IMG/VR virus record: IMGVR_UViG_3300022719_000071
Location: 288,001 to 352,000 of that record
Reading direction: 5' to 3' (one strand)
From: a virus
Lineage: Duplodnaviria; Caudoviricetes
Length of the DNA stretch: 64,000 nucleotides
Shown here: positions 3,432 through 64,000 of the stretch, piece by piece
How the letters are laid out: every line of letters starts with the position of its first letter
Numbering within the stretch: position 1 is the first letter of the stretch
The notes under the pieces: generated by a model
The model's input: the letters and a program-made list of their open reading frames with translations, nothing else
What the model was told of the DNA's origin: nothing
Databases searched by the model: none
Program-made: the position numbers and the translations under genes

Positions 3432-3650
3432 ATGAACTGGATAGTAGACGAACTCAACAAGTACCAACTGGACGAGAAAGCTAAAGAAAGCGAGACGACC
3501 GGTACGGTGCACAAATTCGAGGTAAAGGTTAGCCTCGATGGAACCCTCATGAAAACCGCAGTGTTCGCAGAAAACCTATCTCGTGCCACCAAGATTGCCG
3601 AAAAGTTGTACGGTAAGAAAAACGTTAAAAGCAGACCTGTCAAGAAATGA
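3432..3650 (+). CDS. hypothetical protein
   Basis: TAAATA at 3420; translationally coupled to next gene. Confidence 0.7.
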   Translation: MNWIVDELNKYQLDEKAKESETTGTVHKFEVKVSLDGTLMKTAVFAENLSRATKIAEKLYGKKNVKSRPVKK

Positions 3651-5017
3651 AGATTACAGAACTCACAAAGGGAGTGAAGAAAGGTAGTCAAAAGCGTGCT
3701 AAGCACCCGACTGCAACCGACGATCCCAGCAAGTACATTGGCAAGTGGGAGGAATATGACGAACCCCAAGGTATAAACTCGCCTGTTGGCAGGAGGGTAA
3801 CTAAGAGCAGTCCTAGTGAATCTGTATATTCAGATAAATCCAAGTTCAAAGCCAAATGGACACCTAGCTTTTTACCTGACCCAAAAGATGCTCCGGGTAT
3901 AGCACCATACAGCGCCCCACGTGAAGGAAAAGACGGGATTCTTCACATCATAGATTTTGGTGTGAAACATGATATGAAGAATAAGGCACACAAGAAGGAC
4001 AACCGAAAGAAGTCCATAGAAATCAACGAATCCTGGGATCATTTGCTAACGGAGAAGTTTCACCCAGTAGAGCTTGAAGGATTATACTGGTTCTGGGCTA
4101 ATCCTAACAAGGGTAAAATTATACATGCTAATAATTCCAGCCACACGTTGACCGCCGTTAATCACTTTGGTCTGGATCCAACCGTTTTTGGCTATGAGCC
4201 CGGAGAACAGATTGATCTGGATGATGAGCAAATCTTGTCGTACATGATTAACAACGGATGGGTTCGTGGTGGTTATCTGGAAGATACCAAGCATATTATT
4301 CTTCAGGGTAGTGATGCCGATCATGTGTTTGATGCGTTACAAGCTTTCAAGGATTCTGGTGTAGAAATCCAAAATGCATCCCTCGGTGGTATAAATGATG
4401 GTTTACAACTAGAGCTAAACCAAAATAACATCAAGCAATACCTCGGTGAAATTGATGGTACTGCTTCTATTCAGGGTGGTACTGGTGTATCAAATGATCT
4501 TCGAGCACGAGATCGTGATGTCATTACTCTGGCCGATTTGGAAAACACAGATCCAAACAGTGCAGAGATAGATAATGCCGAGGCTCCCATAAAGCAGACA
4601 ATTCGAAAGGGGCAGAAGCTCAACACGGATACTCCGGGCTTGAAAGAATCTCGTATGGACGAGATGGTTCGCAGTAATCCTATGCAGTTGATGAATGCTG
4701 AATACGAGCTACGCAATGACGAGGATACCGATACCATTGGTATGGCTATGATCACTGATGGCGTCATTGAGACTCTTGCTGTTCGAAACGATTTCAATAA
4801 GGAATACAATGGGTACATCCTTTCCAGATTGATGAGTGCTATTGTGAACGATGCCGATCTATCAAACTCCAACCTGTCCATTCGATTGGAAGACCAGAAC
4901 GACCTACAACAAAAAAGGTTCCTAGAACGATTTGGGTTCCGTCACATTCAGGATGGAATCATGAAAAGGAATGCTGGGGCTATTCGTCCAACTTCTGTTC
5001 CTAGCGCTCGCATTTGA
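3647..5017 (+). CDS. putative head-packaged protein with C-terminal GNAT-like domain
   Basis: MKITEL N-terminus; IETLAV...ILSRLMSAIVNDAD...RFLERFGF resembles GNAT motifs A/B. Confidence 0.55.
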   Translation: MKITELTKGVKKGSQKRAKHPTATDDPSKYIGKWEEYDEPQGINSPVGRRVTKSSPSESVYSDKSKFKAKWTPSFLPDPKDAPGIAPYSAPREGKDGILHIIDFGVKHDMKNKAHKKDNRKKSIEINESWDHLLTEKFHPVELEGLYWFWANPNKGKIIHANNSSHTLTAVNHFGLDPTVFGYEPGEQIDLDDEQILSYMINNGWVRGGYLEDTKHIILQGSDADHVFDALQAFKDSGVEIQNASLGGINDGLQLELNQNNIKQYLGEIDGTASIQGGTGVSNDLRARDRDVITLADLENTDPNSAEIDNAEAPIKQTIRKGQKLNTDTPGLKESRMDEMVRSNPMQLMNAEYELRNDEDTDTIGMAMITDGVIETLAVRNDFNKEYNGYILSRLMSAIVNDADLSNSNLSIRLEDQNDLQQKRFLERFGFRHIQDGIMKRNAGAIRPTSVPSARI

Positions 5018-5020
5018 TTC

Positions 5021-5912: not shown

Positions 5913-6397
5913 AAGGTACTGTCGAGATGTCTAAAAGGATTCTTCTCACCAATGGCGGCTACACAACCGTAGACGACGCTGATTACGAATTTCTGTCGCA
6001 GTTTTCTTGGAGAAAGAAGCGCAGCGATGGCAGCAAGAACTTTCACGCCGTGCGTGACGTTGATCTGGGTCGCACCAAGGTCACCGTACGTATGCATCGT
6101 CTCATCGCCGAGGCTGAAACCGACGAGTTAGTTTTCCACGTCAATGGTGATGGCCTGGATAACCGCCGACGAAATCTTCAGAAGCGTCAGATCAAGCCCT
6201 GGACCGGTAGAGCTGACGAGTCCGGTTTCTTTGGCGTCCACCGCTCTTCTGGTGGCTATGAGGCTCGTATTAGCTTCACCGGTCGCAAGTATCCTCTGGG
6301 CGTCTTCGAGAACGCTACGGACGCTGCTCTTCGCTATGACCGTGCTGCTCGTGAACTATACGGTGAGAACGCCAGAACGAATTTCGGAGCATCCTAA
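5909..6397 (+). CDS. HNH endonuclease with C-terminal AP2 DNA-binding domain
   Basis: MHRLI...[14 protein letters not shown] (HNH) plus GFFGV...YEARI...LGVF...[21 protein letters not shown] (AP2). Confidence 0.9.
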
Positions 6398-7227
6398 TGT
6401 CTAAGGATTACTACAAGATCCTTGGAGTGTCAAAAGACGCCGATGAAGGTGAGATTAAGAAGGTATGGCGTAAGGTTCGAACCAAACTCCACCCAGATAA
6501 AGGTGGAGACGAGGCGAAGTTCAAGGAGGCCAAAGAAGCTTATGACGTTCTGACCGATCCTCAGAAGCGTGCCGCTTACGATCAGTTTGGAACTCCTGAT
6601 TTGAATGCTACCAGACAACGACAATATGATCCTAACATTGAGGATATTCTTCGTGCTGCCGCCAGCGCATTCGGTTTTGGAGCAGGGGGAGGTTTTGGTC
6701 CTGCCAACGTAGATATCATCAACGGCGAGATCAGACAGAAGATCAGTGTGCCAGTCGATGTCATGCTAGGCGGCGGAACATTCAACTTCACATACGTGGT
6801 TCCGGTTGCACATGATTCTGTTTCTCTTCAGTTCCGTCATAGCATGGGAAGCATGACCATTGATCCAGATACTCCTCTTGGTCATACTGCTACCAAAGAA
6901 GAGTTCGGACAAAAGATGGTATTGATTTTGATTCCAGAGTCTACTAACAATTATGCTTCGCAGGGTTTGGATGTAGTGACTCAAGCTGAGGTTGATGTTC
7001 TTAGGGCACTTGCGGGTGAGTCATTTGAAATCACTCACCCAAATGGGACAAAGCTCAAAATAAAGCCTCCTGCATCCCTCAACAAGACCAACATGATTCG
7101 TATACCGAACAAGGGATTACGCTCGACGAGGGGGGCACGGGGAGATTTTCTAGTGGCTCTGAAGCTGACAGTTCCATCAATTACTGATGCTCAAAGGAGG
7201 AAGTTACAGGAGTTATTAAAGACTTGA
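6397..7227 (+). CDS. dnaJ: DnaJ-class co-chaperone (J domain + C-terminal domain, no Zn finger)
   Basis: KDYYKILGV...LHPDKGG...[15 protein letters not shown]; IPNKGL...RGDFLV. Confidence 0.9.
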
Positions 7228-7382: not shown

Positions 7383-10300
7383 ATGGCTAACCCCCGTGAT
7401 TACCGTCCATTGCATCCTGGAATGGGGCAAGCAGTAGCAGAAAGAACATATCTAAGAAAGAAGGATGATGGAGAGTGGGAGACCTGGGGTGAAGTAGCCG
7501 ACCGTGTAGCACTCGGAAATTCTCTTCTGTGTAAGGACAAGAGTGAGCAAAAAAAAGAGCAAGAAATCCTCCGTCGTCATCTTGCTAATGGATCTTTGCT
7601 AATGAGTGGCCGTCACCTTCAGCACGGTGACGAGAACCAACCCACCCGTAACATGGAAGTCTTTACCAATTGTCTGGATGGGGATACTAAGATTCTCACG
7701 CTAGAACACGGACCTGTGGCTATCTCTGAGGTTGTTGGCGAAACCGTCACTGTTCGAGCACGAGATGGAGAATGGCGTCCTGCGCTCGTATCTTCCCACG
7801 GCGAACAGCAGTTGCAGGAAATTCGATTCGGTGCGTCTAATGGAACTACTGACCAATTCAATTTGGTAGTGCATGCCACCCCGAACCATCGATGGTTCCT
7901 TGAGTCTGGAGAGGTTACAAACGCTATTAGCGTCGGAGACTTTATCGAACCCATTAAACCCGCTTCGGTGGAAGACATGGATGCGGTGCGTCATGGACTG
8001 GTGTATGGTGATGGCACTGCACATAAGTCTCGGGTGCATTCCGCAAGACTGGAAGCCCAAGGTATTCAGAATTGTTCCATTCGGCTATGTGGGAACTCTT
8101 CCGAGTGGGTTTCGCTGTTTGAAGATGACTACACGATTACTCACCCCCCACATGCGAATGGTGACGCTGTGGTGTATGTCGGACGCAAACTATGGAAAGA
8201 CCTTCCGCATACCACTGACCCTGCATACATCGCCGGATTTATTAAAGGGTGGTGGATGGCGGATGGCAGTAAGACGTATAACAGAAGCAACGGAATCGAG
8301 ATTGCTACCACCAACATCGATGCAGTATCGTGGCTAAAGGATTATGCAGCGTATGCCGGATATGTCATAACCGAAATTTCTGAAAAGTTCCGCAAAGAGG
8401 GGGATGGCTCGTTCAACAATGGTCTAGGAAAGACCTTGTATTGTGTTCGGCTGAACAATGCCGAGATTCGACGCAAGGTTCTCTCCATTGTACCCACGGT
8501 CGTGAAGGAGGTCTTCTGTGTCGAAGAGCCGGTAACAACTGGATTCACATTAGCGAATGGTTTAGTGACTGGAAACTGCTCAACTTCCGCATCCAGCTTC
8601 GTGCTATTCTACCTTCTATTAAATGGTAGCGGTGTTGGTCGTTGTTACGATGATGATATGATGCTAGTGAATTGGGACTATGCTCCTAATGTTCGCTGCG
8701 TAATCGATCACGAGCACAAAGACTTCGATTGGTCTGCACACGAATCTCTACGTGATGCCAAACACAAATATGGAACCGGCAAGGATGTGATGTGGTTCGA
8801 GGTACCCGATTCTCGTGAGGGCTGGGCCAAAGCTCTTGAGATTTGGGAGAATGCTGCTTTTCAGAAAGTTCACGCAAACAAGCTCCTCATCCTGGACTTC
8901 ACCAAGGTGCGCTCGAAGGGATCTCCAATCGGTGGTATGCAAGATCGTCCCTCTTCCGGTCCTGTTCCGTTAATGAATGCGTTCCATAAGGCCGCAACTC
9001 TGAAAGGTGCTGGTCTTGAACGCTGGCGTCAATCACTATACATCGATCATTATTTCGCAGAATGCGTGTTAGTGGGTGGTGCCAGACGCAGTGCAAGAAT
9101 GAGCACAAAATCATGGCGTGATACTTCAGTTCTTGATTTCATTACTGTAAAACGTCCAATCGAATATGATGGATTGAACATGGATGAGATTGTGGAACTA
9201 CGTGCTGATAATCCATTTCCACCGACTGGTTTCTTATGGTCATCCAATAATAGCGTAACTGCTGATGAAGAATTTTGGAAACTTGTTAATCTAAAGAGAA
9301 ACGAAAAGGGTTTTCACGATGAATTGGCACAACATGCCCGTCGTGTTATGCGCAAGCTTTCTGAATCTTCATATGCTGATGGCACAGGAGAACCAGGAAT
9401 TATCAATGTTGATAAACTCGTTCAGAAGGAAGACGGTTGGAATACGTTGACCACTGGTGATTACGTCGGATCGGAGAAGTATCAGCTTGAGGAGGAAACC
9501 GAGTTATACATGAGCCGATTGGCACGTAAGGCCAAGCGCAAGAAGCATCACATAATTACTAATCCTTGTGGTGAGATTGCGCTTACTATACTCGGTGGAT
9601 ATTGCACAATTGCTGATGTGGTTCCATTCCATGCAGACACCTTGGATGAAGCCGAGGAAGCCTTCAGAGCCGCTACACGGGCTCTCATCAGGGTAAACAC
9701 CATGGACTGCCTGTACAAGAAGGAAGTCGAGCGTACGAATCGCATAGGCGTCGGTATGACCGGTGTTATGGAATTCGCCTGGAAGTTCTTCAAGCTTGGG
9801 TTCCGTGATTTGATTGATGAGGAGAAGTCCAAGGACTTCTGGTTGACCCTGGCTCGTTTCAATCGTGCAGTCTATGAGGAGGCAGTAGCCTACTCCGAGA
9901 AGATTGGTGTATCGGTGCCTCACACTATGACTACCATTAAACCATCCGGAACGATTTCCAAGCTCTTTGGTTTGTGCGAAGGTTGGCACTTGCCTTCGAT
10001 GAAGTGGTATGTGCGCTGGGTTCAGTTCCGTGATGATGATCCATTGATTGCCAAGTACCGTGCTGCCAAGTATCCAGTGCGTGAGCTAAAGCAATACCGA
10101 GGTCATGTCATCGTCGGTTTCCCAACTCAGCCAGTTGTGTCTACTATCATACCAGAAGATAAGCTGGTCACTGCTGGTGAGGCTACTCCAGAAGAGCAGT
10201 ATAAGTGGCTCATGCTTGGAGAGAAGTATTGGATTCATGGCACCGATGAGGAAGGCAATCCGGTAACTGACCGTAACATCGGAAACCAGATTTCCTATAC

Positions 10301-10583
10301 GCTCAAGTACAACACGGATAACGTTGACTACAAGCTCTTCAGGGAAATGCTGGTGAAGTATCAGAGCCAAATTCGTTGCTGTTCTGTAATGCCTCAATCT
10401 GATACATCTGCTTATGAGTATCAACCAGAACAGCCAGTGAACAAGGCTGAGTATGAAAAGATTGCTCATGCTATTCAGATGGAACTGGAGGAGGATATTG
10501 GTAAGGAGCACGTTGATTGCGATTCTGGTTCTTGTCCAATTGATTTCAATACCGGAAGCAAGGACAACTCCAAGGCCGCATAA
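7383..10583 (+). CDS. nrdJ: class II (adenosylcobalamin-dependent) ribonucleotide reductase, intein-containing
   Basis: FTNC, GSGVG, GGARRSA, TNPCGEI, TIKPSGT motifs and C-terminal CDSGSCP pair. Confidence 0.9.
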   Translation: MANPRDYRPLHPGMGQAVAERTYLRKKDDGEWETWGEVADRVALGNSLLCKDKSEQKKEQEILRRHLANGSLLMSGRHLQHGDENQPTRNMEVFTNCLDGDTKILTLEHGPVAISEVVGETVTVRARDGEWRPALVSSHGEQQLQEIRFGASNGTTDQFNLVVHATPNHRWFLESGEVTNAISVGDFIEPIKPASVEDMDAVRHGLVYGDGTAHKSRVHSARLEAQGIQNCSIRLCGNSSEWVSLFEDDYTITHPPHANGDAVVYVGRKLWKDLPHTTDPAYIAGFIKGWWMADGSKTYNRSNGIEIATTNIDAVSWLKDYAAYAGYVITEISEKFRKEGDGSFNNGLGKTLYCVRLNNAEIRRKVLSIVPTVVKEVFCVEEPVTTGFTLANGLVTGNCSTSASSFVLFYLLLNGSGVGRCYDDDMMLVNWDYAPNVRCVIDHEHKDFDWSAHESLRDAKHKYGTGKDVMWFEVPDSREGWAKALEIWENAAFQKVHANKLLILDFTKVRSKGSPIGGMQDRPSSGPVPLMNAFHKAATLKGAGLERWRQSLYIDHYFAECVLVGGARRSARMSTKSWRDTSVLDFITVKRPIEYDGLNMDEIVELRADNPFPPTGFLWSSNNSVTADEEFWKLVNLKRNEKGFHDELAQHARRVMRKLSESSYADGTGEPGIINVDKLVQKEDGWNTLTTGDYVGSEKYQLEEETELYMSRLARKAKRKKHHIITNPCGEIALTILGGYCTIADVVPFHADTLDEAEEAFRAATRALIRVNTMDCLYKKEVERTNRIGVGMTGVMEFAWKFFKLGFRDLIDEEKSKDFWLTLARFNRAVYEEAVAYSEKIGVSVPHTMTTIKPSGTISKLFGLCEGWHLPSMKWYVRWVQFRDDDPLIAKYRAAKYPVRELKQYRGHVIVGFPTQPVVSTIIPEDKLVTAGEATPEEQYKWLMLGEKYWIHGTDEEGNPVTDRNIGNQISYTLKYNTDNVDYKLFREMLVKYQSQIRCCSVMPQSDTSAYEYQPEQPVNKAEYEKIAHAIQMELEEDIGKEHVDCDSGSCPIDFNTGSKDNSKAA
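7671..8576 (+). mobile_element. intein with LAGLIDADG homing endonuclease (302 aa)
   Basis: Starts CLDGDTKILT, ends TLANGLVTGN before +1 Cys; internal GLVYGDG and GWWMADGS motifs. Confidence 0.92.
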
Positions 10584-17626: not shown

Positions 17627-17965
17627 ATGAGCACTGAAAACGAAAATTTAGATGATGACGGATCCCTGGTAGTGGATCGTCCACCGGCAGAAGAGCGCAA
17701 GGATCTTGCGCCCCCGCCGAAGTACGCAGTAATGCTACTAAACGACGACTTCACTCCGATGGACTTCGTAATGGCAGTCCTCGTGAAATTCTTCTCGAAG
17801 TCTCAAGAGGAGGCTGAGAAGATCACCATGGAGGTACACGAGAAGGGGGAGGGGTTGGCCGGTATCTTCCCGAAGGATATCGCAGAGACCAAGGCGTCTC
17901 AGGTGTGTCACATTGCGCAGTCCAATGGACATCCGTTTAGGGCCGACGTGAAAGGTCTCCACTAA
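17627..17965 (+). CDS. clpS: ATP-dependent Clp protease adaptor ClpS
   Basis: YAVMLLNDDFTPMDFV...FSKSQEEA...MEVHEKG...AETK...HPFR. Confidence 0.95.
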   Translation: MSTENENLDDDGSLVVDRPPAEERKDLAPPPKYAVMLLNDDFTPMDFVMAVLVKFFSKSQEEAEKITMEVHEKGEGLAGIFPKDIAETKASQVCHIAQSNGHPFRADVKGLH

Positions 17966-18007: not shown

Positions 18008-18164
18008 GACCTGGGTCGAAGCTGTTTCGTTATCGTAATTGGTACATTAAAAGCGGAACAGCAGAACCTTATCCGGGGCTTAATTTTTGAAGGCTGCGAG
18101 CCGAACGACAGATCATTATCGTTCATGTATAAACGGCGAGATGGTTCGATTCCATCATAGGTCT
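18008..18164 (+). ncRNA. Y-RNA-like, tRNA-mimic non-coding RNA upstream of ro60
   Basis: GUCGAAG (18015-21) Ro-motif; helix 18021-29/18054-62; T-arm GAUGG-UUCGAUU-CCAUC (18140-56); acceptor-like 18008-13/18158-63. Confidence 0.75.
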
Positions 18165-18213
18165 GGCGACACGTTAAAATTGGTCTGGCACCAACTTGTT
18201 CGCAACCAAGAAG

Positions 18214-50007: not shown

Positions 50008-50026
50008 GATAAGACTCCCTTATCTA

Positions 50027-50899
50027 TTATGCAGCTACCAATCGATTCGGTAACCTGACCTTAATCCACTGTTCCTGAATTCTTCCTCCAGGAAAAAACT
50101 TCTGCTCTTTGACCTGTCCGGTCTTCGGGCAGTGACCCTTAGTGACAGGATACGTGGTGCTGACCTCGCCATTAGCATATAAGTTCACGCTCTCCACTGC
50201 GACGTAATGAACGTCCCACACCGTCACTCGGACTCCCCTCCAATCGTACGTAGGCATGCCCAGGATGTTCTCAACTTGCTGAGCCCTACCAGACAACGGA
50301 TCACCAATGTGGGGCTGTCCGTAAGGTTCACGGAGATTGACGACCGGAATGCCAAGTTCACGTGCTGTGTCCAGTGTACGGAAAATATCACCAGAGTCAA
50401 CAGTCTGAGGCGTCATGACCACGTTCAGCTTACCTGGACGCTTCTCCATTAGCTTCAGAATGGCACGAACATCGGGTGCCTTGCCCATACCCATGGTCTC
50501 GGCGTACAACGCATCATCAAAGCTTGTAATCGACAAACTGTACTTGTCGAACAACTTCATCACATCCGGACGCTTGAGGGCTAAAACTCCATTGGTACGG
50601 AGACCGAAACGAAGACCAGGGATGTACTTGTCCAGGTACGCACGCAGCTTGTCCATGTGAGCATACATCAATGGATCAGTGTTGGAACCAGTGACGTTGA
50701 TTTCCGTGATATTATGCTTGCGGCATTCGAGCACAAAACGATGCAGATTCTGTAACGGATAGGTATTGAGATTGTTGTATGGGTCGAGTGCCATCATGTG
50801 CTGACCGATGCAGAAATAGCATGCACGGTTGCATGGCCCTGAAAGATGGATGTTGCCAAACCAATGGCTAAACTGACCCTGTGAATTCAAACAGCCCAT
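50027..50899 (-). CDS. radical SAM protein
   Basis: CNRACYFC; TGSNTDP; TNG; SITSFD. Confidence 0.88.
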   Translation of the reverse strand: MGCLNSQGQFSHWFGNIHLSGPCNRACYFCIGQHMMALDPYNNLNTYPLQNLHRFVLECRKHNITEINVTGSNTDPLMYAHMDKLRAYLDKYIPGLRFGLRTNGVLALKRPDVMKLFDKYSLSITSFDDALYAETMGMGKAPDVRAILKLMEKRPGKLNVVMTPQTVDSGDIFRTLDTARELGIPVVNLREPYGQPHIGDPLSGRAQQVENILGMPTYDWRGVRVTVWDVHYVAVESVNLYANGEVSTTYPVTKGHCPKTGQVKEQKFFPGGRIQEQWIKVRLPNRLVAA

Positions 50900-52354: not shown

Positions 52355-54682
52355 ATGCGACTATCAGAATTTTTCGTATTATTGGAGGCTAAGGATCGAT
52401 TGACATATATCGCATCGACCCTTCAGAAAAAACTCCTCAAGAAATTTCAGAATGACTATGAGGCCAAGAAGCTTCGTGGCACGTCTGTTAATACGATCTT
52501 GAAAAGCGTCAAGCAAGGCGATTTTGTAGAAGCCGCCAAGGACATGGTGGAATTTTTCGCAGCCGCAGATCCCTCACGTAACAACAAGTTTACAGACTGG
52601 ATTGTCCGTCAATGGTTAACGGACAAGGTTTTGTGGGAGGATGCTTATAAGCTGAAGGACTTGTTGGAAGAATTTGATAAGCATCGCAAAACCCTTGAAA
52701 TCAAGGACATTAATGGGTTCAAGGATTATCGTGATCTGGAAGATGCTCTCAAGCCACATATTGGTAAAGCCTCTGCCGGTGTTCGTGTCAAGAACTTCAT
52801 GGACAAGGACCAAACCAAGTCTCTGATGAAGAAGACTGCTCCGGATCCAGAAAGCGATGATATCAAGGTGGCATACAAAAAGAGGCAGGAAGAGTCTACC
52901 GATGTACCTCAATGGTTTTATGATGCCGAGGTTGAAAATGTCACTCACATACTGGATAATGAAACAGATTCTGAAATCTTTTACGATGAAGCAGAGAGTT
53001 ACTTAGACCCAGACGAATTCACAGATGAGGATGGTAATCGTGATGAAGAAGCTTGGGATCTAGCACTAACAGATTATGCAGAAGATTTGAGGCAGCAGTA
53101 TATCAGGAGCAAATTAGAAAATGAAATTAGTGAGCTTTGGCAGGAATATCGTGAGAAACAGGATGATGAATTCAATCGTGAGTTAAAATACGCACCACAA
53201 GTTCCTGAGCTTGTTCCTTTCTATACAACTGATCGTCTGGCTGTCCTCATCCCGAACACCGAAGAAGCAGCTTGCTACGTAGGCTCAGGTACGCAATGGT
53301 GCACGGCTGCGACCAATGCCGAGAACTACTTTTGGGAGTACCGCCTGGATGGACCGATATACGTTGTACTGACAGACAAGTTAGGCAAGTATCAGTTCCA
53401 TTTTGAGTCCGCTCAGTACATGGATGAGAAAGATCGACAGATTGGTAATACCGGTGTCTTACAGAAGTTAGTCTCGAATTACCCAGAGCTTCAAGAAGCA
53501 TTCAAGGAGAAGGCCAAGCAGTTCTACGAGCTATGGCTTATGCCAGTAGGTGAAATTACGGAAGGAATGTGGGCAACCTTGTTTCAAGCAGGATTGAATT
53601 ATGAAAATGCAATAGCCCAAGTAGTTGCTGGGCGTGATGATGAATATGACTGGAATCCATCAGACACTACTGAACTAATTGCACGTGCATATGTGGTTCA
53701 CAAAGATCGCATGCCAGACAAATGGGTTGGAAGGTACAAGGACTACTTGTTGAATAGTGCTAAGAACAAAGCTTTCGAGAATGGGTGGCTAGAAAAGGAT
53801 GAGTTGGACAACAACGCTCTTAATTCCATGATGAGAAACTTCCAGAACGAGTCACGAAATAACAAGGAGGAGTTTATCAAGTGGCTAGTGACCAACGGAG
53901 TCGATATCAATCGTGAGACCTGGGCATACTTGGTTAGAATGTTACCGAATACTTTGATGTTTATTCCAAACGAATTCATTACACCAGATATGGTAGCCAG
54001 AGCACTATCAGCAAATGTAGAAGGAAGTCGTTCCATTCCAGGAGTCTATCAAGGTAAGTCCAAGATACCTTTGTTCAACCTACTGCATGAATATAAGAGT
54101 GCTCGTGATACAACAACACAAAATCCCTTTAAGCAAACTTACATTGACAATGGAAAGAAGATTATCTCCATTGTCAATGAGCAACAGATAAAGGAAGCTA
54201 TTAACGGTGAAGATGCGTTAGGGTTCTTACATTTGATGCAGGACCATTTTGGTGATTTCCCATGGGCATATGCCATCGAGCGTTCACCACGTGACAGCCG
54301 TGAGCTTGCGGTCATTGCACAACAGTTGGCATTCTACCTGAATCCAATGTTTAACTCTGGTATCAAAACCAAACTGAATCGTGATCAACTCATCAATGCC
54401 ATCATATCCAAGCGCCCGGATACCATTCAGGTTTTGAGTAAGTTCATAGAGACTCCTAATGCCCTTCATGGTTTCCATGAGAGAGTCAAAGAAGCGGTAT
54501 TGAATGCAGATAACTGGCGTCGTGGTGAAGCCATTTTGAATGAAGTGTCCGATTGGATCACCAAAGATCTTCATGACGAATTATGGGCTCATTTGAGACA
54601 ACAACGAGATAACGAAGTGAACATTGAACTAGCAAAGAAACGTGCATACGCTGATTCCGCTGGTAACCAGCCAGAAAGATAA
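52355..54682 (+). CDS. tagged head-cargo candidate, WCTA family (paralog of 60898 and 63037)
   Basis: MRLSEFFVLLEAKDR; DPSRNNKFTDW; AACYVGSGTQWCTAA; GPIYV...KYQFHFES.QYMDE. Confidence 0.8.
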   Translation: MRLSEFFVLLEAKDRLTYIASTLQKKLLKKFQNDYEAKKLRGTSVNTILKSVKQGDFVEAAKDMVEFFAAADPSRNNKFTDWIVRQWLTDKVLWEDAYKLKDLLEEFDKHRKTLEIKDINGFKDYRDLEDALKPHIGKASAGVRVKNFMDKDQTKSLMKKTAPDPESDDIKVAYKKRQEESTDVPQWFYDAEVENVTHILDNETDSEIFYDEAESYLDPDEFTDEDGNRDEEAWDLALTDYAEDLRQQYIRSKLENEISELWQEYREKQDDEFNRELKYAPQVPELVPFYTTDRLAVLIPNTEEAACYVGSGTQWCTAATNAENYFWEYRLDGPIYVVLTDKLGKYQFHFESAQYMDEKDRQIGNTGVLQKLVSNYPELQEAFKEKAKQFYELWLMPVGEITEGMWATLFQAGLNYENAIAQVVAGRDDEYDWNPSDTTELIARAYVVHKDRMPDKWVGRYKDYLLNSAKNKAFENGWLEKDELDNNALNSMMRNFQNESRNNKEEFIKWLVTNGVDINRETWAYLVRMLPNTLMFIPNEFITPDMVARALSANVEGSRSIPGVYQGKSKIPLFNLLHEYKSARDTTTQNPFKQTYIDNGKKIISIVNEQQIKEAINGEDALGFLHLMQDHFGDFPWAYAIERSPRDSRELAVIAQQLAFYLNPMFNSGIKTKLNRDQLINAIISKRPDTIQVLSKFIETPNALHGFHERVKEAVLNADNWRRGEAILNEVSDWITKDLHDELWAHLRQQRDNEVNIELAKKRAYADSAGNQPER

Positions 54683-55971: not shown

Positions 55972-56070
55972 ATGAGATTACTACAATTCTTTGGTGCTAT
56001 CAGTGAGGAACGCAACATACCAGACCTAGAGGTTGGTGATGAGTTGATGAACCAGGAGAATAGTTCATGA
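55972..56070 (+). pseudogene. 32-codon tag-bearing gene stub
   Basis: MRLLQFFGAISEERNIPDLEVGDELMNQENSS* after TAAATA 55935. Confidence 0.55.
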
Positions 56071-56552
56071 GATTGTATGAATTCCTTAAACTTACTGAAT
56101 CCAATATAAACCTATCTGGGTGGTACAACGCAAAAACTGGAATTTTTTTGCAATTAGATCGTGGTGAAGATGAGATGTATCACCACTTTGATCTTGCTTT
56201 CGATAATCCAAAAGAATTTGGTGGTAAGCGTGTTCTTGGTAATGTCGTGGATACTACAGACCTGATAGCAAAGGTAGCGAAGGACGGGTGGGTGAGAACC
56301 AATCATTTCGGTGGTGTTTTATATCTAGATGTTACGCCAGAAACCGCCAAGCCTGCTGTAGCGTGGGGTGCAGAATATACTAGTAACATCGTAGTTGGTA
56401 TCTGGCCGGTGGGCAAGAGCTTTGGTGAAATCAAGGAAATCAAGCTCAATAACCTCAAAGAGATTAAAGCGTTTCTGGAAAGTAAATTGACCGAAACTAT
56501 CAATTCACGTTCTTTTGACACGCTGGTTATCACTGATCCATTGCCGGGATAA
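56067..56552 (+). CDS. tagged head-cargo candidate
   Basis: MRLYEFLKLTES; GWVR motif like that in the 3647 gene. Confidence 0.7.
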   Translation: MRLYEFLKLTESNINLSGWYNAKTGIFLQLDRGEDEMYHHFDLAFDNPKEFGGKRVLGNVVDTTDLIAKVAKDGWVRTNHFGGVLYLDVTPETAKPAVAWGAEYTSNIVVGIWPVGKSFGEIKEIKLNNLKEIKAFLESKLTETINSRSFDTLVITDPLPG

Positions 56553-56556
56553 GACG

Positions 56557-57309
56557 ATGAAATTACAAGAACTCATTCAGCACTCGCAGACCAAAGCCGG
56601 TAACATCACTTTGGACTACAACGAGGACGTTGAACCAGAGAACCGTGGCTTTGTGATTGATCGTATTGATGCATATCAAGATGGTAGACACATTGGCTAT
56701 CTCAAGATCTCCTACGTACCAAAAGAACTGTTCCACAAGTTCTTTCCATCTGTACTGCACTTCGAGTCAATCCTGCACGGCAAGAATTACATCCCATACA
56801 ATATCATTCGCAATGGTCCACCATTCCAGCATTGGTCAAAGTACGACGAAGAAACACAACGTCAAATGCTAGCCAGCGTTATGGTATCCCATTACTGGAG
56901 TAAACAAGGCATCGCCAAAACTCTACCAATCGATCAAGTCAGAGCCCTGATTCGAAAATTCGAGCGGGAAATGGCCAAGTCTACACGTCCAGGATCATAC
57001 AGAGATTTCTATGCACACTTTGTAAACAAGCCATTCGTGGATTACATCAAGGTAGACAGCGGTGATCCATTTGATGCCGAGTCATTTGGACGTGAGAGAG
57101 ACAGCGAAGGTGAGGACATGCGTCGTAAAGGAATCGGAACTACGTTGTATAGAGCTGGTGCGCAATGGATGAAAGAACGTGGAATGAAACTTCATGCTTC
57201 TGGTACGCAATCAGATGAAGCACAGGCAGCATGGGAGAAATTTACTCAACAAGGTAAAATTGGCAAAACCAAATCCGGTCGTAAATACTACAAAGAACAA
57301 AGACGATGA
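56557..57309 (+). CDS. tagged GNAT-family acetyltransferase
   Basis: MKLQELI; FVDYIKV...MRRKGIGTTLY...SGTQSDEAQAAWEKF. Confidence 0.75.
   Translation: MKLQELIQHSQTKAGNITLDYNEDVEPENRGFVIDRIDAYQDGRHIGYLKISYVPKELFHKFFPSVLHFESILHGKNYIPYNIIRNGPPFQHWSKYDEETQRQMLASVMVSHYWSKQGIAKTLPIDQVRALIRKFEREMAKSTRPGSYRDFYAHFVNKPFVDYIKVDSGDPFDAESFGRERDSEGEDMRRKGIGTTLYRAGAQWMKERGMKLHASGTQSDEAQAAWEKFTQQGKIGKTKSGRKYYKEQRR
57143..57251 (+). repeat. repeat X (109 nt), exact copy at 59179-59287
   Basis: cgttgtatagagctggtgcg...gagaaatttactcaaca in both places. Confidence 0.95.
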
Positions 57310-57786: not shown

Positions 57787-59055
57787 ATGACTGGAAAACT
57801 CATAATAAAAAGTGGAAGCATTATAACAGTTCAATCCGGAGGACGGGCCATCATAGGCCCAAAGGAAGTTGTTGGTTGGGCAGAATGGGATGGTAGTAGC
57901 GACAGTGTTAATCAAAGTGTTATAAGCTCTGGCATTGGCGGATATCCATTAAATGCCAATCTATACAACACCGATTCGATTTCTTTGCTATACCGGAATG
58001 CTTCTTTTAACTTCACTGCTACAGCGTCTACTTTGTTTCTATCTGGGAATACCATTACCCAAGGTTCGTCTGGTGAGTTTATATTCGGACCATCTCCAGG
58101 ACAGAACAATTCTGACATCACTAATGTAGACAGTAATACAATCATCTTTACCAATCGTAATAACACTACCACAACTAGCGCATGGCAAGGAACCGCATAT
58201 AACATTTCTGCTGCCCCAGTAGGAACATATTCGAGTGGTTCTACACGTACGTTGTCTACTAGTGGATTTACGCAGGGTGGTAACTATTTTCAAGTCAACC
58301 GATTTGCAGTTGGTGAAATAAGCTTTACGCAACGTCTAAAGGCAAACAACGGATCACAACAATTTGTTCGTACTGTTTCTAACAACTCGTTGAACAGTGC
58401 GAATGCGGCATCTGGTTCCGATTTTAGTGCATCGGGGAATACGTTTTTGAGAACATTCGGTGGCGGTGACACCGGAGGACATGGAGACGTTGGAAATAGC
58501 CGTGTGGCAATCCTACGTGATGATACCGATGATGAAGAGCTATTCTTTACATCGTTTTCTAATCCTACTCTTAGTGTTGGAACATTATACAACACTAGCA
58601 GCATTGACGGGCCATCTTCTAGTTTCTACTTGCATAAAATCATTGATGAAGACCACGTTTTGGTGACATACTCTGATACTACCACCGGTGATCTGTCTGG
58701 TGTAGTATTGACATTGAGTGGTAACGATGTTATTGCAATCGGTACTCCATTTACTTTGCGTTCTGGAGAGGAATGGTTGACCGTGAAAATAATTTCTACT
58801 GCGGCGAATCAGGTTATGATTATTGGTGACGTGGAAGAAGATGCAGATCCAGGAAACCGAGATATCAAGGTAGCCGTTGTTACCTTCGCAGACGTAAACA
58901 CTCCTACAGTAGAATCCGTAATCGATATTGATGCACTACATAGTGCTGGTGCTGGAAATGCTCATCCGCAAATACTTCCGTTAGATGCTAGCAGGATTCT
59001 GGCTCTATGGAGTGACGGTACATCCAATCTTCAAGGGCGTGTGCTCAACCTATAA
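57787..59055 (+). CDS. beta-rich putative adhesin/tail-fibre module, allele B
   Basis: MTGKLIIKSGSIITVQSGG; S/T/G-rich repeated beta blades. Confidence 0.65.
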   Translation: MTGKLIIKSGSIITVQSGGRAIIGPKEVVGWAEWDGSSDSVNQSVISSGIGGYPLNANLYNTDSISLLYRNASFNFTATASTLFLSGNTITQGSSGEFIFGPSPGQNNSDITNVDSNTIIFTNRNNTTTTSAWQGTAYNISAAPVGTYSSGSTRTLSTSGFTQGGNYFQVNRFAVGEISFTQRLKANNGSQQFVRTVSNNSLNSANAASGSDFSASGNTFLRTFGGGDTGGHGDVGNSRVAILRDDTDDEELFFTSFSNPTLSVGTLYNTSSIDGPSSSFYLHKIIDEDHVLVTYSDTTTGDLSGVVLTLSGNDVIAIGTPFTLRSGEEWLTVKIISTAANQVMIIGDVEEDADPGNRDIKVAVVTFADVNTPTVESVIDIDALHSAGAGNAHPQILPLDASRILALWSDGTSNLQGRVLNL

Positions 59056-59056
59056 T

Positions 59057-59183
59057 GGTTAAATACAGGGTATCTACTAGGAACCCTGTAAATGCGTCTT
59101 GTTGAATTCTTCGAGCTTCTGGAAGCCAAAGACAGACTAGAATATCTTGCTGACAAAAATGCCAGCAAGATCTTCGCTCGTTG
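59057..59183 (+). repeat. repeat Y (127 nt), near-exact copy of 60863-60989
   Basis: TAAATA motif, hairpin and first 30 codons of the 60898 gene. Confidence 0.95.
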
Positions 59184-59367
59184 TATAGAGCTGGTGCGCA
59201 ATGGATGAAAGAACGTGGAATGAAACTTCATGCTTCTGGTACGCAATCAGATGAAGCACAGGCAGCATGGGAGAAATTTACTCAACAGGGTAAAGTTGCC
59301 AAAGGTAAGCACGGACGACGCTATCTGGAGAAAAAGGATGAAGCTATTAGAATTTTTAGATGACTGA
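59092..59367 (+). pseudogene. chimeric remnant: 5' of 60898 gene joined out of frame to GNAT 3' end, then MKLLEFLDD* stub
   Basis: Y/X junction at shared CGTTG (59179-83). Confidence 0.85.
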
Positions 59368-59587
59368 TGATTTACTGCTGTAATCCTATCTCGCAGAACA
59401 AACCAAATGCGGCATCATGAATGCTTTGATACACTTTCTTGAAGAAATAGCAAGATCCAAAAGGGAAAAAGAGGTATGAGAGATTATTCGTCAACTGGCG
59501 ACCATCTTATGTCTCGATCCGCTAAATAATTTGTAATGACACCACAATCCGGATACACCGGAATCTCAGAGTAACAGGAAAAATTTA

Positions 59588-60838
59588 ATGACTGGTATAA
59601 TCAATATCAAAAGCGGAAGCCTTCTTACTATCCAATCTGGTGGGGTGCTAAGCACCGGCCCATTGCCACCACAGCCTCTTTGGGGTGGCTACGATGGCAG
59701 CAACAATGGTGCCTCTAATAACCTTGGAGCGCTTGGTACTAGTGGAATATTGAGGTTCTTTTCTCTTCCAATTATGGACACCGACAAGGTGATGCTGGGT
59801 TATTTTGGATCTGGAGAAAGTAGTTTCCCACGTGCTATAATTGCGTCCAGGAGTGGTGATACTGTTTCAGTAGGTAGCAGTCTACTGCTTAATAGTATCA
59901 ACACTAGCAGTAACAGATTTGGTATTGCAGGATCGGATACCAACCGTGCTATTGCGTACTATCGAAATGGCGATGCCTCAGACGGTAAGGTTCTGACCGT
60001 ATCCGGCACCACAATAAGTTCTGCTGGCACAACTTTTGGTGTCATTGGTTCTGGTCGTCCCAACAATCTAGAGATGGCACAAATCGATACAAACAGACAC
60101 ATCATTACATGGAACACTTCTACTGGTGGGTTTGAGACCCGTGTTCACGCTGCTACCAATACTGGTGGAACAATTACCAGTGGTGGCACTGGTAATTTGA
60201 TATTCACCAATCACGTTGCTAATGACAACTCCAGTGCTAAGTTAGACAGCACTCGTATTATCAATGCCTATCGACAGAGCCTTAGTGGTCAACCGGACAG
60301 CAATGACATCTTTATTCAAGTACATGAGAACACTTCAGGAACCACGATATCATCCGGTACTCCTGTGAAGATTGAAGAGTCTGGTAATAACACAGAGAAA
60401 ATGTTGTGTGTGATTCCAATCACCGCAAATGCGGCTGCTGTTATCTACGGCGGATCGGTTCCTGACAAAACCTTCATTCAGTTCTACTCCATTAACGGAA
60501 CCACGTTGACCGCAGAAGGTGGAGAACAGACATTGGATAATAAATTCTGGTCCGGCAAGAACCCATCCGAATCAACCTTCAATTGCACCAAGCTAACAGA
60601 GACAGAGTTCATGGTGTCCTATATTACTAATTCTGGTGGTATCTTAGACTGGGTAAGTCGTGTAATCACCTTTCCAACGACTACTACTTTCTCATTGGGT
60701 AGTGAGGTATTGCTACTACCAAGTGGAACATTTGCAAACGAAAGAGTTATTCAAACATTGAATAGCACCACTGTCCTGGCTTTGTACACCGAGAATACAT
60801 CCACTGACACAGCACGAGCAATCGTAATCAACGTCTAA
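59588..60838 (+). CDS. beta-propeller-like putative adhesin/tail-fibre module, allele C
   Basis: MTGIINIKSGSLLTIQSGG; about seven ~55-aa repeats such as VLTVSGTTISSAGT, ENTSGTTISSGTP, YSINGTTLTAEG. Confidence 0.7.
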   Translation: MTGIINIKSGSLLTIQSGGVLSTGPLPPQPLWGGYDGSNNGASNNLGALGTSGILRFFSLPIMDTDKVMLGYFGSGESSFPRAIIASRSGDTVSVGSSLLLNSINTSSNRFGIAGSDTNRAIAYYRNGDASDGKVLTVSGTTISSAGTTFGVIGSGRPNNLEMAQIDTNRHIITWNTSTGGFETRVHAATNTGGTITSGGTGNLIFTNHVANDNSSAKLDSTRIINAYRQSLSGQPDSNDIFIQVHENTSGTTISSGTPVKIEESGNNTEKMLCVIPITANAAAVIYGGSVPDKTFIQFYSINGTTLTAEGGEQTLDNKFWSGKNPSESTFNCTKLTETEFMVSYITNSGGILDWVSRVITFPTTTTFSLGSEVLLLPSGTFANERVIQTLNSTTVLALYTENTSTDTARAIVINV

Positions 60839-60897: not shown

Positions 60898-62949
60898 ATG
60901 CGTCTTGTTGAATTCTTCGAGCTTCTGGAAGCCAAAGACAGACTAGAATATCTTGCTGACAAAAATGCCAGCAAGATATTTGCTCGTTGGAAACAAAAAG
61001 TCAATGACGAGGGAATGACAGGATTACCCCAAGATTGGATCGAAGCAATAGCCGATGGCATCATCCCAGATGCCATGACCATGGAACAATTCAAGGATTT
61101 GAATGACCTCGCACAACGTCACCAAGATATGCCAAAGTGGGTAGTAGATTTCTTCGCCCAATTCGATCCATCCAAGAATAACAAGTATACCGATTGGATT
61201 CTACGCCAGTGGCTCTCTGACAAGCTGTGGCTAGAAGACACCTACAAGCTCACCAGCACGCTTGAAACATTCGAGGAGCACCGCAAGAAGCTAGGTAACA
61301 TGGACATCCTAGATCGTAATGGAGACCCATTAGGACCGCCCCCAGAGCGCCGTGGAGATATTAACGCCTGGAAAGACTACCGAACCCTCTTCCACGCTCT
61401 TAGGCCGCTACAAGGCACTACAGCGGCTGGTGAGAAGGTATCAAATTTCTTGGCAAAAGATAACATTCAGAAAATGATGCACATTCCTGTTCCAGATCCA
61501 GTGAGTACATTTGGTCCAAATGGTGAGCATGACATTGATGAGATCCAAAGCGATTACGCAGAATGGGCTGGAAAGGACGGTGGTGAGTTTGATACCCATG
61601 ATTGGTATGACTTCGTTGGTTCGGATGAGGATACCGAATCTACCACTGAAATCAAGCCAATTTACAAGTCCGACCGTTTGGCAGTTCTTCAGCCAAACAC
61701 ACGACGTGCAGCTTGTGAGCTAGGACGTGGCACCGAGTGGTGCACCGCTTCTACGTCATCCCACAACCACTTCTGGAATTATGCACCGAGTGGCCCGCTG
61801 TATGTCATATTGACTGACAAGATGGGCAAGTATCAGTTCCACTTTGATTCGGGGCAATTTGCCGATGTACATGATAATATGCTTAGCGACGAGCAGAAAG
61901 CAGAATTGGCGAATGCATACCCCGAACTACGTAAAATTTTTGCTGATGAAGCTGTAAAGCATGGTCAACTATGGTTGATCGATCCAGCAATGATTACTTC
62001 GGAGTATCTGGAGAACATTCAAAATGATCCAGACATCTATGGTCCTTATAGCCGGGAAGCTCGAAGTCGTTTGGAAATGCTGATGCAGAAAATTCCAAAG
62101 GCATTTGATGGCAAGGCTGATGAGAAAGCATTGCGTATGGCTGAGGAGTGGCTAAGGAAGAATAAACCAGAAGAGGCTTGGAGGTATGTACGTAAGCCAA
62201 CTGAGCAAGACTTCTTGGATGGTATTCAATCCATGCCATCTGATGACATTCGTCAGGTGACCAATACTTGGAACATTATGAATTTTGCAAGGCAAAACAA
62301 CATTGAACTTTCGGATGAGGTATACGAGGCTGCGGTTGCGTCTGACTCCGAATCTATTCTATCGGTCACAGTGTCTGCTATATCCAGGAACCCACAGTGG
62401 GTTCTGGCCGCTGTTAAGGACCAGCCACGTTTCGTTGAGATGATTTATGCAACCCTATTTGGTGATTCTCAGTATGACATAGAGACAGAGCGTGCTCAGG
62501 TTATGCACCATGCACTAATGTCCCTGGATGGCGGTAAGGAGTTAATAATGAATGCACTATATAACCGTCCAACTATGGTGCGTTGGTTAGGTAATGTATT
62601 TGGTATTGACCCATGGAAGCACGCCTTCAAAATTGCACATGTAATATGGAATGATCATAGCGTAATGAACCAATTGCGTAAGATTCTTGAGACACAGAAC
62701 TTCAGTAACGAAGAACTAGTCGATTTGCTGATGTACCTGTTTGATATTAACGCAATCAATTTGTCACTGGTCAAAACAATCGAGCACAAGCTTGGTGGTT
62801 CTCTTCCATTGCAGTTACAGAAGAAGATTGTTCAAGAGAATCCACTGAACATTCAATTGATAGGAAATCCGGACCCAAATGTGCTGAAGATAGCACAAGC
62901 TATGGTCAAGGGTAATAGCGAGCTATCCTCGTTGCGCAGAGCGCAATGA
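60898..62949 (+). CDS. tagged head-cargo candidate, WCTA family
   Basis: MRLVEFFELLEAKDR; DPSKNNKYTDW; AACELGRGTEWCTAS; GPLYV...KYQFHF. Confidence 0.8.
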   Translation: MRLVEFFELLEAKDRLEYLADKNASKIFARWKQKVNDEGMTGLPQDWIEAIADGIIPDAMTMEQFKDLNDLAQRHQDMPKWVVDFFAQFDPSKNNKYTDWILRQWLSDKLWLEDTYKLTSTLETFEEHRKKLGNMDILDRNGDPLGPPPERRGDINAWKDYRTLFHALRPLQGTTAAGEKVSNFLAKDNIQKMMHIPVPDPVSTFGPNGEHDIDEIQSDYAEWAGKDGGEFDTHDWYDFVGSDEDTESTTEIKPIYKSDRLAVLQPNTRRAACELGRGTEWCTASTSSHNHFWNYAPSGPLYVILTDKMGKYQFHFDSGQFADVHDNMLSDEQKAELANAYPELRKIFADEAVKHGQLWLIDPAMITSEYLENIQNDPDIYGPYSREARSRLEMLMQKIPKAFDGKADEKALRMAEEWLRKNKPEEAWRYVRKPTEQDFLDGIQSMPSDDIRQVTNTWNIMNFARQNNIELSDEVYEAAVASDSESILSVTVSAISRNPQWVLAAVKDQPRFVEMIYATLFGDSQYDIETERAQVMHHALMSLDGGKELIMNALYNRPTMVRWLGNVFGIDPWKHAFKIAHVIWNDHSVMNQLRKILETQNFSNEELVDLLMYLFDINAINLSLVKTIEHKLGGSLPLQLQKKIVQENPLNIQLIGNPDPNVLKIAQAMVKGNSELSSLRRAQ

Positions 62950-63036
62950 CGTAGCACGCCACCGAAGAGGAGATGACAAACATGATAGCTGAAGTAATGG
63001 AGACATTAAAACAAAGATTACATGGTGATTAAAGCG

Positions 63037-64000
63037 ATGATACCACTAACAGTAATCATGAACGAGGAAGAGTTGCTGGAGAATCGTTTGGAGTTTCTTC
63101 AGCAAAAGTTCGCTGAGCCTTTGGCTGCCAGAGCAGCACAAGACCCCCAGGCCAAATCTGTGGCCGGTGGGGACGTATTCACGTTCTTGGTGAATGCTGA
63201 CCCGTCTCCCAACAAAAAGTTCGTCCAGTGGCTTATAGGGCTCTATCTGAAGGGAAACCTGATGCTAGAAGATGTGTACAAGGCCAATGAGTATCTTCAG
63301 TTGTTCTTGAAGAACGTGAAGAAGCTTCCTGGGCCTATGCGTGATATCAATCGTTACAAAAACATCAATGACCTGTACGACGTGATCGAACAGTACGAGG
63401 AAGTGCAAACACAGAGTGAGATCAATCTTAAGCTTGACCAGAAGATGCATGGCCCTGAACATGTGAACATCATCTATAACAGCCCGACGATGAAGGTGTT
63501 GCAATTGAAGAGCAAACAGGCAGCTTGCTATTTTGGCAAGAACACCAAGTGGTGTACGGCTGCACGTAACAACAACATGTACGATACTTATGCCAAGCAA
63601 GGTCCAATCTTTATTGTCCTGGTAAAGAAAGAGAACGTGCGTTTCCAATTGCATTTCGAGTCCAATCAGTTTATGAATGAGAAGGACCAAAGTGTTGACA
63701 TGATGGAGCTTGGAGACAAATACCCAGAACTCAAAAAGGCGCTTGGTTTATTGTATAACAAGGCTGTGGTCACACAAGACCCATCGAATATTTTCCAGTT
63801 GGAGAATCCAGTGGATGAGGTTGTGGAAACAGCATTCTATCGTAAACCATCGATGATTAAGAACATAAGCGATCCAAGCATGCCGATGATTATCGGTGCA
63901 ATAAAAAAGGAACCTGAGATCATAATAGATTTGATCAAGACTGGTGTTGAGGTTCCGGATGAATTGCAGACGTATGCTGTGCAGCAGAACTTTTCTTTGT
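63037..64000 (+). CDS. WCTA-family protein, runs off the window (absent from ORF track; start uncertain)
   Basis: EELLENRLEFL; DPSPNKKFVQW; AACYFGKNTKWCTAA; GPIFI...RFQLHFESNQFMNE. Confidence 0.8.
   Translation, partial: MIPLTVIMNEEELLENRLEFLQQKFAEPLAARAAQDPQAKSVAGGDVFTFLVNADPSPNKKFVQWLIGLYLKGNLMLEDVYKANEYLQLFLKNVKKLPGPMRDINRYKNINDLYDVIEQYEEVQTQSEINLKLDQKMHGPEHVNIIYNSPTMKVLQLKSKQAACYFGKNTKWCTAARNNNMYDTYAKQGPIFIVLVKKENVRFQLHFESNQFMNEKDQSVDMMELGDKYPELKKALGLLYNKAVVTQDPSNIFQLENPVDEVVETAFYRKPSMIKNISDPSMPMIIGAIKKEPEIIIDLIKTGVEVPDELQTYAVQQNFSL

Follow-up and report, generated by a model that had tools for sequence, protein, structure and literature searches.

A shared N-terminal tag, probably of the T4 capsid-targeting kind, on at least a dozen otherwise unrelated genes of an uncultured jumbo phage

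The capsid targeting sequence (CTS) of phage T4 is a propeptide of 10-19 residues that is sufficient for encapsidation and is removed by the protease gp21 (PMC9026906, PMC3012670, PMC5694885). Propeptides of 10-20 residues are taken off by gp21 in T4, and a segment as short as residues 1-10 of IPIII is enough for encapsidation (PMC9026906, PMC5694885); the principle of such a tag has already been stated for T4-type phages (PMC3012670, PMC9026906). In the phiKZ-like giants phiKZ, 201phi2-1 and SPN3US many head-internal proteins are cut after Glu by a gp21-related protease, and the diverged SPN3US paralogues gp53 and gp54 have identical N-termini that were called CTS-like (PMC5694885, PMC10052503). 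For a further class, the polyvalent proteins of phages and conjugative elements, packaging and injection along with the DNA have been predicted (Iyer et al. 2017, PMC5512222). Here we describe a 64,000-nucleotide stretch of DNA (the window), bases 288001-352000 of the 360,469-bp virus record IMGVR_UViG_3300022719_000071, in which a series of genes begins with a short shared peptide. The first-pass annotation had read these genes as one large family with a capsid-targeting-like tag on diverse enzymatic cargo. We find that the tag is carried by at least a dozen otherwise unrelated genes of the whole record, whose products probably travel in the virion and enter the cell along with the DNA.

The genes of the window that enter this account are listed below and are referred to by their first base. 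A slash marks the putative cleavage site, lengths are in amino acids (aa), and the scores come from the position matrix described after the list. Coordinates preceded by G000 refer to the whole record.

3647-5017, plus strand: 456 aa, MKITE/LTKG, then a basic stretch; short propeptide resembling that of T4 Alt, probable member; matrix 12.9
14966-17593, plus strand: 875 aa, Amidoligase_2; MNKPNLLFE/G; doubtful member, an L-F-E site without the tag
22170-23084, plus strand: 304 aa, first gene of the operon 22170-27058; hydrophobic N-terminus, untagged
23081-24796, plus strand: 571 aa, MKLVQLFE/QVSLFE/AA; tagged, without known domain; paralogue of G000 197114
24796-25347, plus strand: 183 aa, MRLLQFLE/AT; predicted ParB/sulfiredoxin-fold domain at residues 12-128 and a C-terminal module of ~50 residues; matrix 13.6
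25344-26201, plus strand: 285 aa, tag MKLIDLMRHTRIDE/AP; matrix 14.8
26198-27058, plus strand: 286 aa, tag MKLLDLMRHTRIDE/AP; more than 100 metagenomic homologues
52355-54682, plus strand: 775 aa, MRLSEFFVLLE/AKDRL; paralogue of 60898 and 63022
56067-56552, plus strand: 161 aa, MRLYEFLKLTE/S; matrix 11.3
56557-57309, plus strand: 250 aa, GNAT acetyltransferase; MKLQE/LIQHSQ, first half of the tag only; matrix 16.0
60898-62949, plus strand: 683 aa, MRLVEFFELLE/AKDRL; matrix 8.6; paralogue of 52355
63022-64000, plus strand: third paralogue of the 52355 family, 621 aa in the genome and cut off by the end of the window; possible member, LLE/N within an atypical leader

The pattern M-[KR]-[LIVF]-x-[EDQ]-[LFI] stands at 15 of the 488 N-termini of the genome. 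When residues were shuffled within each N-terminal position, a conservative null because the excess of Lys at position 2 is preserved, 0.96 occurrences were expected and none of 5000 shuffles reached 15. At internal positions the pattern has a frequency of 0.096%, and of 0.28% after internal Met, making it ~30 and ~10 times rarer there than at N-termini. The regular expression had been set after the data were seen, and for this reason we also scored the N-termini with a position matrix (residues 2-9) trained solely on metagenomic homologues of the 26198 protein, with the phage's own genome excluded. Eight genes (3647, 23081, 24796, 25344, 26198, 56067, 56557 and 60898) top all N-termini in this matrix with scores of 8.6-16, the 99.9th percentile of 2412 internal-Met control sites being 8.2; 52355 scores 5.3. 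A matrix built outside the genome from a single family thus recovers other tagged proteins with unrelated bodies. A motif no commoner at N-termini than by chance would have spoken against the capsid-targeting reading; the shuffle and the matrix agree in pointing the other way.

All ten start codons lie where the first-pass annotation had placed them, nine being the first start after an in-frame stop; the exception, 56557, starts at an ATG 14 codons into a TTG-started open reading frame (ORF) and 5 nucleotides (nt) past the stop of the preceding gene. The shared tag itself is real, enriched and confirmed by the matrix, with a membership narrower than first drawn. MNKPNLLFEG of 14966 falls outside the scoring N-termini, which removes this gene from the clear members, and its paralogues at G000 281571 and 128763 are untagged. 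In 3647 and 56557 the first half of the tag is followed only by a very short I-T-E or L-Q-E site (5 residues). With 52355 and 60898 paralogous (the bodies of 25344 and 26198 are unrelated, so that these two are not paralogues), we estimate the independent tagged families of the window at about eight rather than ten. The family extends beyond the window, with tagged genes that include:

G000 58822-60576, minus strand: tagged gene
G000 80420: tagged gene
G000 246744: tagged gene
G000 283602, minus strand: tagged gene
G000 352887: tagged gene
G000 353777: start of a tagged gene

The last of these (G000 353777-353917), a 46-aa ORF, shares the 12-residue tag of 56067 but nothing beyond it, and could represent either a remnant or an internal protein of very small size. 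A second candidate tag type, N-D-I-L-R-L-A-G, seen in G000 197114 and in EST35_0203 of phage PA5oct, was dropped because it occurs once per genome.

The public gene call for 52355, P0108 (760 aa), has its start at a Leu codon 15 codons too far downstream, which removes the whole tag (52355-52402). Since 60898 and all close homologues of 52355 keep it, automatic gene callers can evidently hide such tags.

The conserved signal resides in the peptide and not in the nucleotides. Synonymous codons vary freely across the tags, with Arg written as AGA, CGC, CGA or CGT, Leu in five codons, and Glu and Phe varying also; between the tag of 56067 and the copy of it at G000 353777 all six changes are synonymous, and their likeness stops at the end of the tag. 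Because of this variation we reject a nucleotide-level (translation) signal. Further to that, the tag behaves as a module. The neighbours 25344 and 26198 share 15 of 16 tag residues and 46 of 48 tag bases, while their upstream DNA and their bodies are unrelated. Something very similar is found in the T4 record, where the first 30 bases of ipII and ipIII, coding for MKTYQEFIAE, are identical and the two genes diverge after them. Nearly all of the >100 metagenomic homologues of the 26198 domain, down to ~30% identity, start with the same kind of peptide, and where relatives of this domain are fused behind ART-PolyVal (PF18760) or GNAT, the tag stands at the extreme N-terminus, ahead of the first domain. 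The 24796 domain has 170 homologues, and among the 148 listed most are untagged and a minority tagged. Because the tag precedes whichever domain comes first, and because the 24796 domain occurs both with and without it, the history of the tag is distinct from that of its cargo.

At its end the tag resembles a protease cleavage site, with the cut after Glu. An (L/I/F/T)-x-Glu sequence closes most tags, its Glu at residue 8, 11, 12 or 14 and in many cases with an Ala or Ser behind it; sites at these positions occur in 23081, 24796, 25344, 26198, 52355, 56067 and 60898. Across 42 homologues of 26198 (28-79% identity) Glu14 is invariant, while tag length and sequence vary. Agreeing with this, the AlphaFold 2 (AF2) model of 26198 has a mean predicted local distance difference test score (pLDDT) of 90.9 but values below 50 for residues 1-14, and the domain starts right after them. 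Between 23081 and its paralogue at G000 197114 the leaders differ and homology begins just past the L-x-E/A sites, the leader of the paralogue ending in LLE/A and LDE/A directly before it. In the T4 record, gp24, Alt, gp21, gp22, gp67, gp68, IPII and IPIII start with short peptides ending in (L/I)-x-E, and the N-terminus of Alt, MELITE/L, is the comparison for 3647. T4 gp23 is cut after F-L-T-E; the capsid protein of the present phage has Y-L-M-E/N-A-S immediately ahead of the conserved mature region that aligns with gp23.

A protease that could make such cuts is encoded in the same genome. The record (360,469 bp, G+C 46.7%, CheckV completeness 91%) holds a gp23-type major capsid protein (PF07068, 283 bits) and a gp21-type prohead protease, whose gene (G000 165788-166438) contains a Peptidase_S77 match (PF03420, 88.2 bits, G000 165833-166282) and which also matches phrog_207, 'head maturation protease', at E 3.9e-51. 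The gene order of the head module is T4-like: portal, an ORF of 333 aa, protease, a Glu/Lys/Ala-rich ORF of 361 aa, and capsid. Among cultured phages the capsid protein is closest to jumbo myoviruses, namely Sinorhizobium phage Phosso (62%) and Vibrio phage 2.275.O, GAP32, CBB and Atu_ph07 (~56%), and 10 kb of the window had no megablast match among cultured phages. On account of the gp23-type capsid, the S77 protease, the T4-like head module, the jumbo-myovirus capsid neighbours and the lack of close cultured DNA, we assign the phage, by its genes, to the uncultured jumbo myoviruses of the T4 superfamily. The 361-aa ORF between the protease and capsid genes, a putative scaffold protein, matches no Pfam family and one unnamed PHROG only. 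Complex prediction for residues 1-40 of 52355 with two copies of it gave a score of 0.00 and was run without controls, so that it carries no weight either way.

Relatives of the tagged genes in other phages provide a link to the virion. The PA5oct homologue of 52355, EST35_0205, begins MKLFEVFTLYE/D and is annotated as a structural protein by electrospray ionisation tandem mass spectrometry (ESI-MS/MS) of the virion. Six annotated coding sequences (CDS) of the PA5oct record have the pattern, and four of the six are positive by mass spectrometry, as against 93 virion-associated products among about 450 CDS (PMC7318152). This enrichment (P ~0.02) is suggestive only. In Salicola phage SCTP-2, the only cultured phage found by tblastn with the 23081 protein, four genes around the 23081 homologue start MRLNNLFE/S (gene 31), MKIRHLYE/N, MKVKHITQYLFE/S and (V)KITELFE/S. 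PA5oct and SCTP-2 each encode an S77 protease, and the four complete genomes considered (T4, PA5oct, SCTP-2 and this phage) all combine tagged arrays with an S77 protease. Two metagenomic contigs with family-B DNA polymerases also have runs of gene starts of the form M-K/R-x-x-E-F/L ... E, which include an HD-domain protein and a DUF6321 protein. By tblastn the 26198 protein matched nothing among cultured phages, and an IMG/VR search for relatives of the 56557 and 3647 proteins found none.

As an aside on the PA5oct record (MK797984.1), EST35_0152 at 84079-84711 is annotated as 'prohead assembly (scaffolding) protein' yet matches Peptidase_S77 at 85 bits; the published name is probably mistaken.

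The genes 23081, 24796, 25344 and 26198 overlap by 1-4 bases behind the untagged, membrane-like gene 22170 and, because of these overlaps, are taken as one operon. In a metagenomic relative (L013; 45-77% protein identity) the 22170 homologue sits in the same place and is 61% identical, and the tag is kept on the homologue of 23081 (MRLLAFLE/SVNIME/AA) and on that of 26198. Between them (L013 8349-9997, window 24796-26201) the two tagged genes have been swapped for untagged genes of 396 and 152 aa. The locus is thus variable, in the manner of the internal-protein loci of T-even phages.

Most of the tagged operons are preceded by a motif, N-TAAATA-[C/A/T], that recalls the T4 late promoter TATAAATA. 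Seventy-three of its 132 occurrences lie no more than 120 nt upstream of a same-strand gene start, where 8.2% would be expected, and besides the tagged operons it precedes the capsid gene, the portal region and head and tail genes. It is probably the late promoter of this phage. Within the window it precedes, among others, the operons with 3647, 14966, 23081-26198, 56067-56557 and 60898; its positions are as follows.

1552: motif
3420: motif, GATAAATAT, 12 nt before a 72-aa gene at 3432 that precedes 3647
7305: motif
14954: motif, CTAAATAC, 12 nt upstream of 14966
21174: motif
22143-22149, plus strand: motif, GATAAATAC, ahead of the operon 22170-27058
55935: motif, 132 nt upstream of 56067
60866: motif, GTTAAATAC, 32 nt upstream of 60898

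Regarding the cargo, which the first-pass annotation had called enzymatic, an enzyme identity can be verified for just two or three of the bodies. The GNAT assignment is sound: 56557 matches Pfam Acetyltransf_1 (PF00583) at E 2.6e-7 and 31.3 bits against a cut-off of 20.7, and 3647 has a C-terminal GNAT hint only (Acetyltransf_10, E 0.042). An amidoligase is present too (Amidoligase_2, PF12224, 23.2 bits), in 14966, the gene whose tag is doubtful. The ParB-like domain, in 24796, is borne out at the level of the fold, by its DGWHR motif and by structure comparison. In this motif (residues 101-105) all of 54 sequences have H104 and R105, and at least 90% of them keep D101 and G102; the AF2 model (pLDDT 82.9) finds Srx, PadC or ParB structures in all of its best 50 PDB rows (best E 3e-3, probability 1.00), and Pfam ParBc_2 or ParB_N matches only two of the 54 family members. 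The prediction of a ParB/sulfiredoxin-fold protein is therefore supported by model and motif.

The zincin-like label, considered for 25344 and 26198, has weak leads behind it: Atlas rows of 0.86-0.90 (WD_0702 and ATLF for 26198, Peptidase_M78 for 25344) and one metallopeptidase row with a Z of 3.3. The HExxH motif is absent, and the A-H-R-x-x-H of the 26198 family, invariant together with two Glu, has Arg in place of the catalytic Glu. Compared with solved structures, the 26198 model gave nothing in Foldseek at E up to 0.001 and a best VIA-align Z of 3.8. The PcfJ-like domain listed by the first-pass annotation found no match in any domain scan of the window. Pfam, NCBIfam and PHROGs returned nothing useful for most cargo bodies, and no function could be assigned from domain scans to 23081, 25344, 52355/60898 or 56067; tagged proteins of the window carry one recognisable domain or none, so that they are not of the multi-domain polyvalent type. 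A role in host takeover or counter-defence is a guess.

Separately from its fold domain, the C-terminal part of 24796 (residues 130-183, window 25186-25347) forms a module of its own with a low-confidence model. The same module also ends otherwise different proteins in metagenomes and the 396-aa replacement protein of L013.

We suggest that the shared N-termini are capsid targeting sequences of the T4 type, with propeptides of 5 to 14 residues, which would be removed after Glu by the S77 protease from proteins packaged in the head and probably ejected; we put the probability of this at about 0.72. The genes would be transcribed, at least in part, from late-type promoters, yielding precursors whose amphipathic N-terminal peptide (Met, Lys/Arg, a hydrophobic residue, any residue, an acidic residue or Gln, Leu/Phe) is not part of the folded cargo domain. 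While the prohead assembles, this peptide would keep the precursor in the scaffolding core, until the S77 protease (G000 165788-166438) cuts after the Glu of (L/I/F/T)-x-Glu at residues 8-14 and frees the mature protein within the shell. Once mature, the proteins would stay beside the DNA in the head and be expelled together with it when a cell is infected. Packaging in this phage is argued by analogy, virion presence having been seen for one homologue in another phage, and core binding, cleavage and ejection would follow the precedent of T4 IPI-III and Alt. The capsid-targeting idea of the first-pass annotation is supported to this extent, having come through every computational test able to overturn it.

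Several observations weigh against this reading. The record is metagenomic and without known host, and for this phage virion presence, cleavage and ejection are predictions from the genes. Four tagged genes (3647, 56557, G000 229803 and G000 236261) are without a clear distal L-x-E site, and the putative scaffold protein was assigned by position and composition alone. In the matrix the T4 CTS scores -3.6 in register and 4.7 when shifted by one residue, because of which we regard the likeness between the two as one of kind and not of sequence. The PA5oct enrichment rests on six genes, and the proteome behind it includes evident non-structural enzymes. The promoter-like motif stands ahead of the ribonucleotide reductase gene as well and hence is not specific to virion genes, for which reason we give it modest weight. 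Finally, the passage of proteins of up to 775 residues through the tail tube is assumed.

Other explanations have to be set against the same data. The tag could well target the prohead while its carriers are parts of the assembly core, degraded or expelled at maturation like T4 gp67, gp68 and gp22, and not injected. T4 core proteins do bear N-terminal (L/I)-x-E peptides of the same kind as the internal proteins, and among the tagged products are several of small size or without any recognisable enzyme domain. However, the bodies do not resemble scaffold proteins, being 183-775 residues long with conserved domains that fold well (pLDDT 83-91), and the enzyme-type motifs in them (GNAT, DGWHR, the invariant AHRxxH) argue against such a role; the loci differ between relatives, unlike essential core genes, and the PA5oct homologue is present in mature virions. 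We consider this explanation unlikely. We give slightly less credence still to an uncleaved N-terminus with no link to the capsid, serving as an amphipathic helix for oligomerisation or membrane contact or as a gene start that favours translation. Met-Lys starts are frequent in phage genes, the first helix of the 24796 model is fairly confident (pLDDT 83 for residues 1-10), and cleavage has so far only been deduced; against this, amino acids are conserved under free synonymous variation, which argues against an mRNA signal, an invariant Glu falls exactly at the start of the fold, tagged arrays accompany S77 proteases in each of the complete genomes, and the peptide is insufficiently hydrophobic for a signal peptide or membrane anchor.

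That a few duplicated genes and a common MK start merely mimic a family is very improbable. It is true that 52355, 60898 and 63022 are paralogous, that 23081 has paralogues elsewhere and that the regular expression was defined post hoc. This cannot account for 15 occurrences where the shuffle gives 0.96, nor for the same genes being found by a matrix from outside the genome; 25344 and 26198 have the tag alone in common, and the cargo differs from gene to gene, from a ParB/Srx-fold model (24796) and a Pfam GNAT domain (56557) to a confident model without PDB match (26198). We therefore retain T4-type capsid targeting as the preferred explanation.

Other genes of the window include a cluster of the NAD salvage type at 46682-50899 on the minus strand, with a nicotinamide phosphoribosyltransferase (47252-48691), a cytidylyltransferase-like and NUDIX protein (48931-50007) and a radical SAM protein (50027-50899). 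At 17627-17965 a ClpS adaptor homologue adjoins a Ro60/TROVE-vWA protein (18087-20084). A DnaJ homologue lies at 6397-7227 and a B12-dependent ribonucleotide reductase of class II type (1066 aa) at 7383-10583. A DUF932 protein (43340-44488, minus strand) and a PhoH-like ATPase (45648-46640) are both untagged.

If capsid targeting is correct, the injected proteins of T4-type phages could be listed from sequence, cultured or not, by the combination of tag and S77 protease. The rule yields a dozen or more candidates here, most without known function, as well as hundreds of metagenomic proteins, and extends to the cultured jumbo phages PA5oct and SCTP-2. Injected proteins precede phage gene expression and would be prime candidates for anti-restriction, anti-defence and host takeover. 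The tags, short and of differing lengths, would also be a natural set of signals with which foreign proteins could be loaded into large capsids. A broader reading, which we offer tentatively and hold to be possible rather than probable, is that the tag acts as a sequence-readable address label valid across the T4 superfamily, jumbo and many uncultured phages included, that its carriers are loaded into the head and delivered, and that the label moves from gene to gene as a recombination cassette, the phages continually exchanging a pool of injected effectors. Movement as a cassette would account for identical tags on unrelated neighbours, for tagged and untagged versions of a domain and for variable loci. 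On the same tentative footing, the pool would hold enzyme families without known fold (e.g. 26198, with its AHRxxH) acting as counter-defence or takeover factors in the first minute of infection.

Compared with described systems, the locus stands apart from the polyvalent proteins, with which it overlaps in domains (GNAT, ParB-like, ART) but which combine 2-15 domains per chain and have no defined targeting peptide, whereas here each module has its own tagged gene. The phiKZ-like giants belong to another lineage, and their cleavage motif is A/S/G-x-Glu with most propeptides longer than 100 residues, in contrast to the T4-like length and the L/I-x-Glu found here. In the jumbo-phage literature searched, tag families of this kind are described from no group but the phiKZ-like one, which differs in motif and in propeptide length. 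T4 itself is also among the closest systems. IPI, IPII, IPIII and Alt carry a short propeptide of the same kind, with two hydrophobic positions three residues apart and an (L/I)-x-Glu ending (Mullaney and Black 1996). In both phages a gp21-type S77 protease is encoded and a conserved tag heads unrelated bodies; the tag DNA of ipII and ipIII is identical at 30 of 30 bases, as that of the neighbours 25344 and 26198 is at 46 of 48. The register is one residue off (M-K/R-L-x-E-F here, M-K-T-Y-Q-E-F in T4), the tags here are 5-14 residues long, and at least 12-16 tagged genes compare with four in T4. The cargo is mostly large (160-775 aa) and of families not known in T4, its carrier is a 360-kb jumbo myovirus, and our comparison reads the genes only; T4 Alt (682 aa) demonstrates that a large enzyme is possible as tagged cargo. 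The principle is thus known from T4, and what is new is the number and the kinds of cargo.

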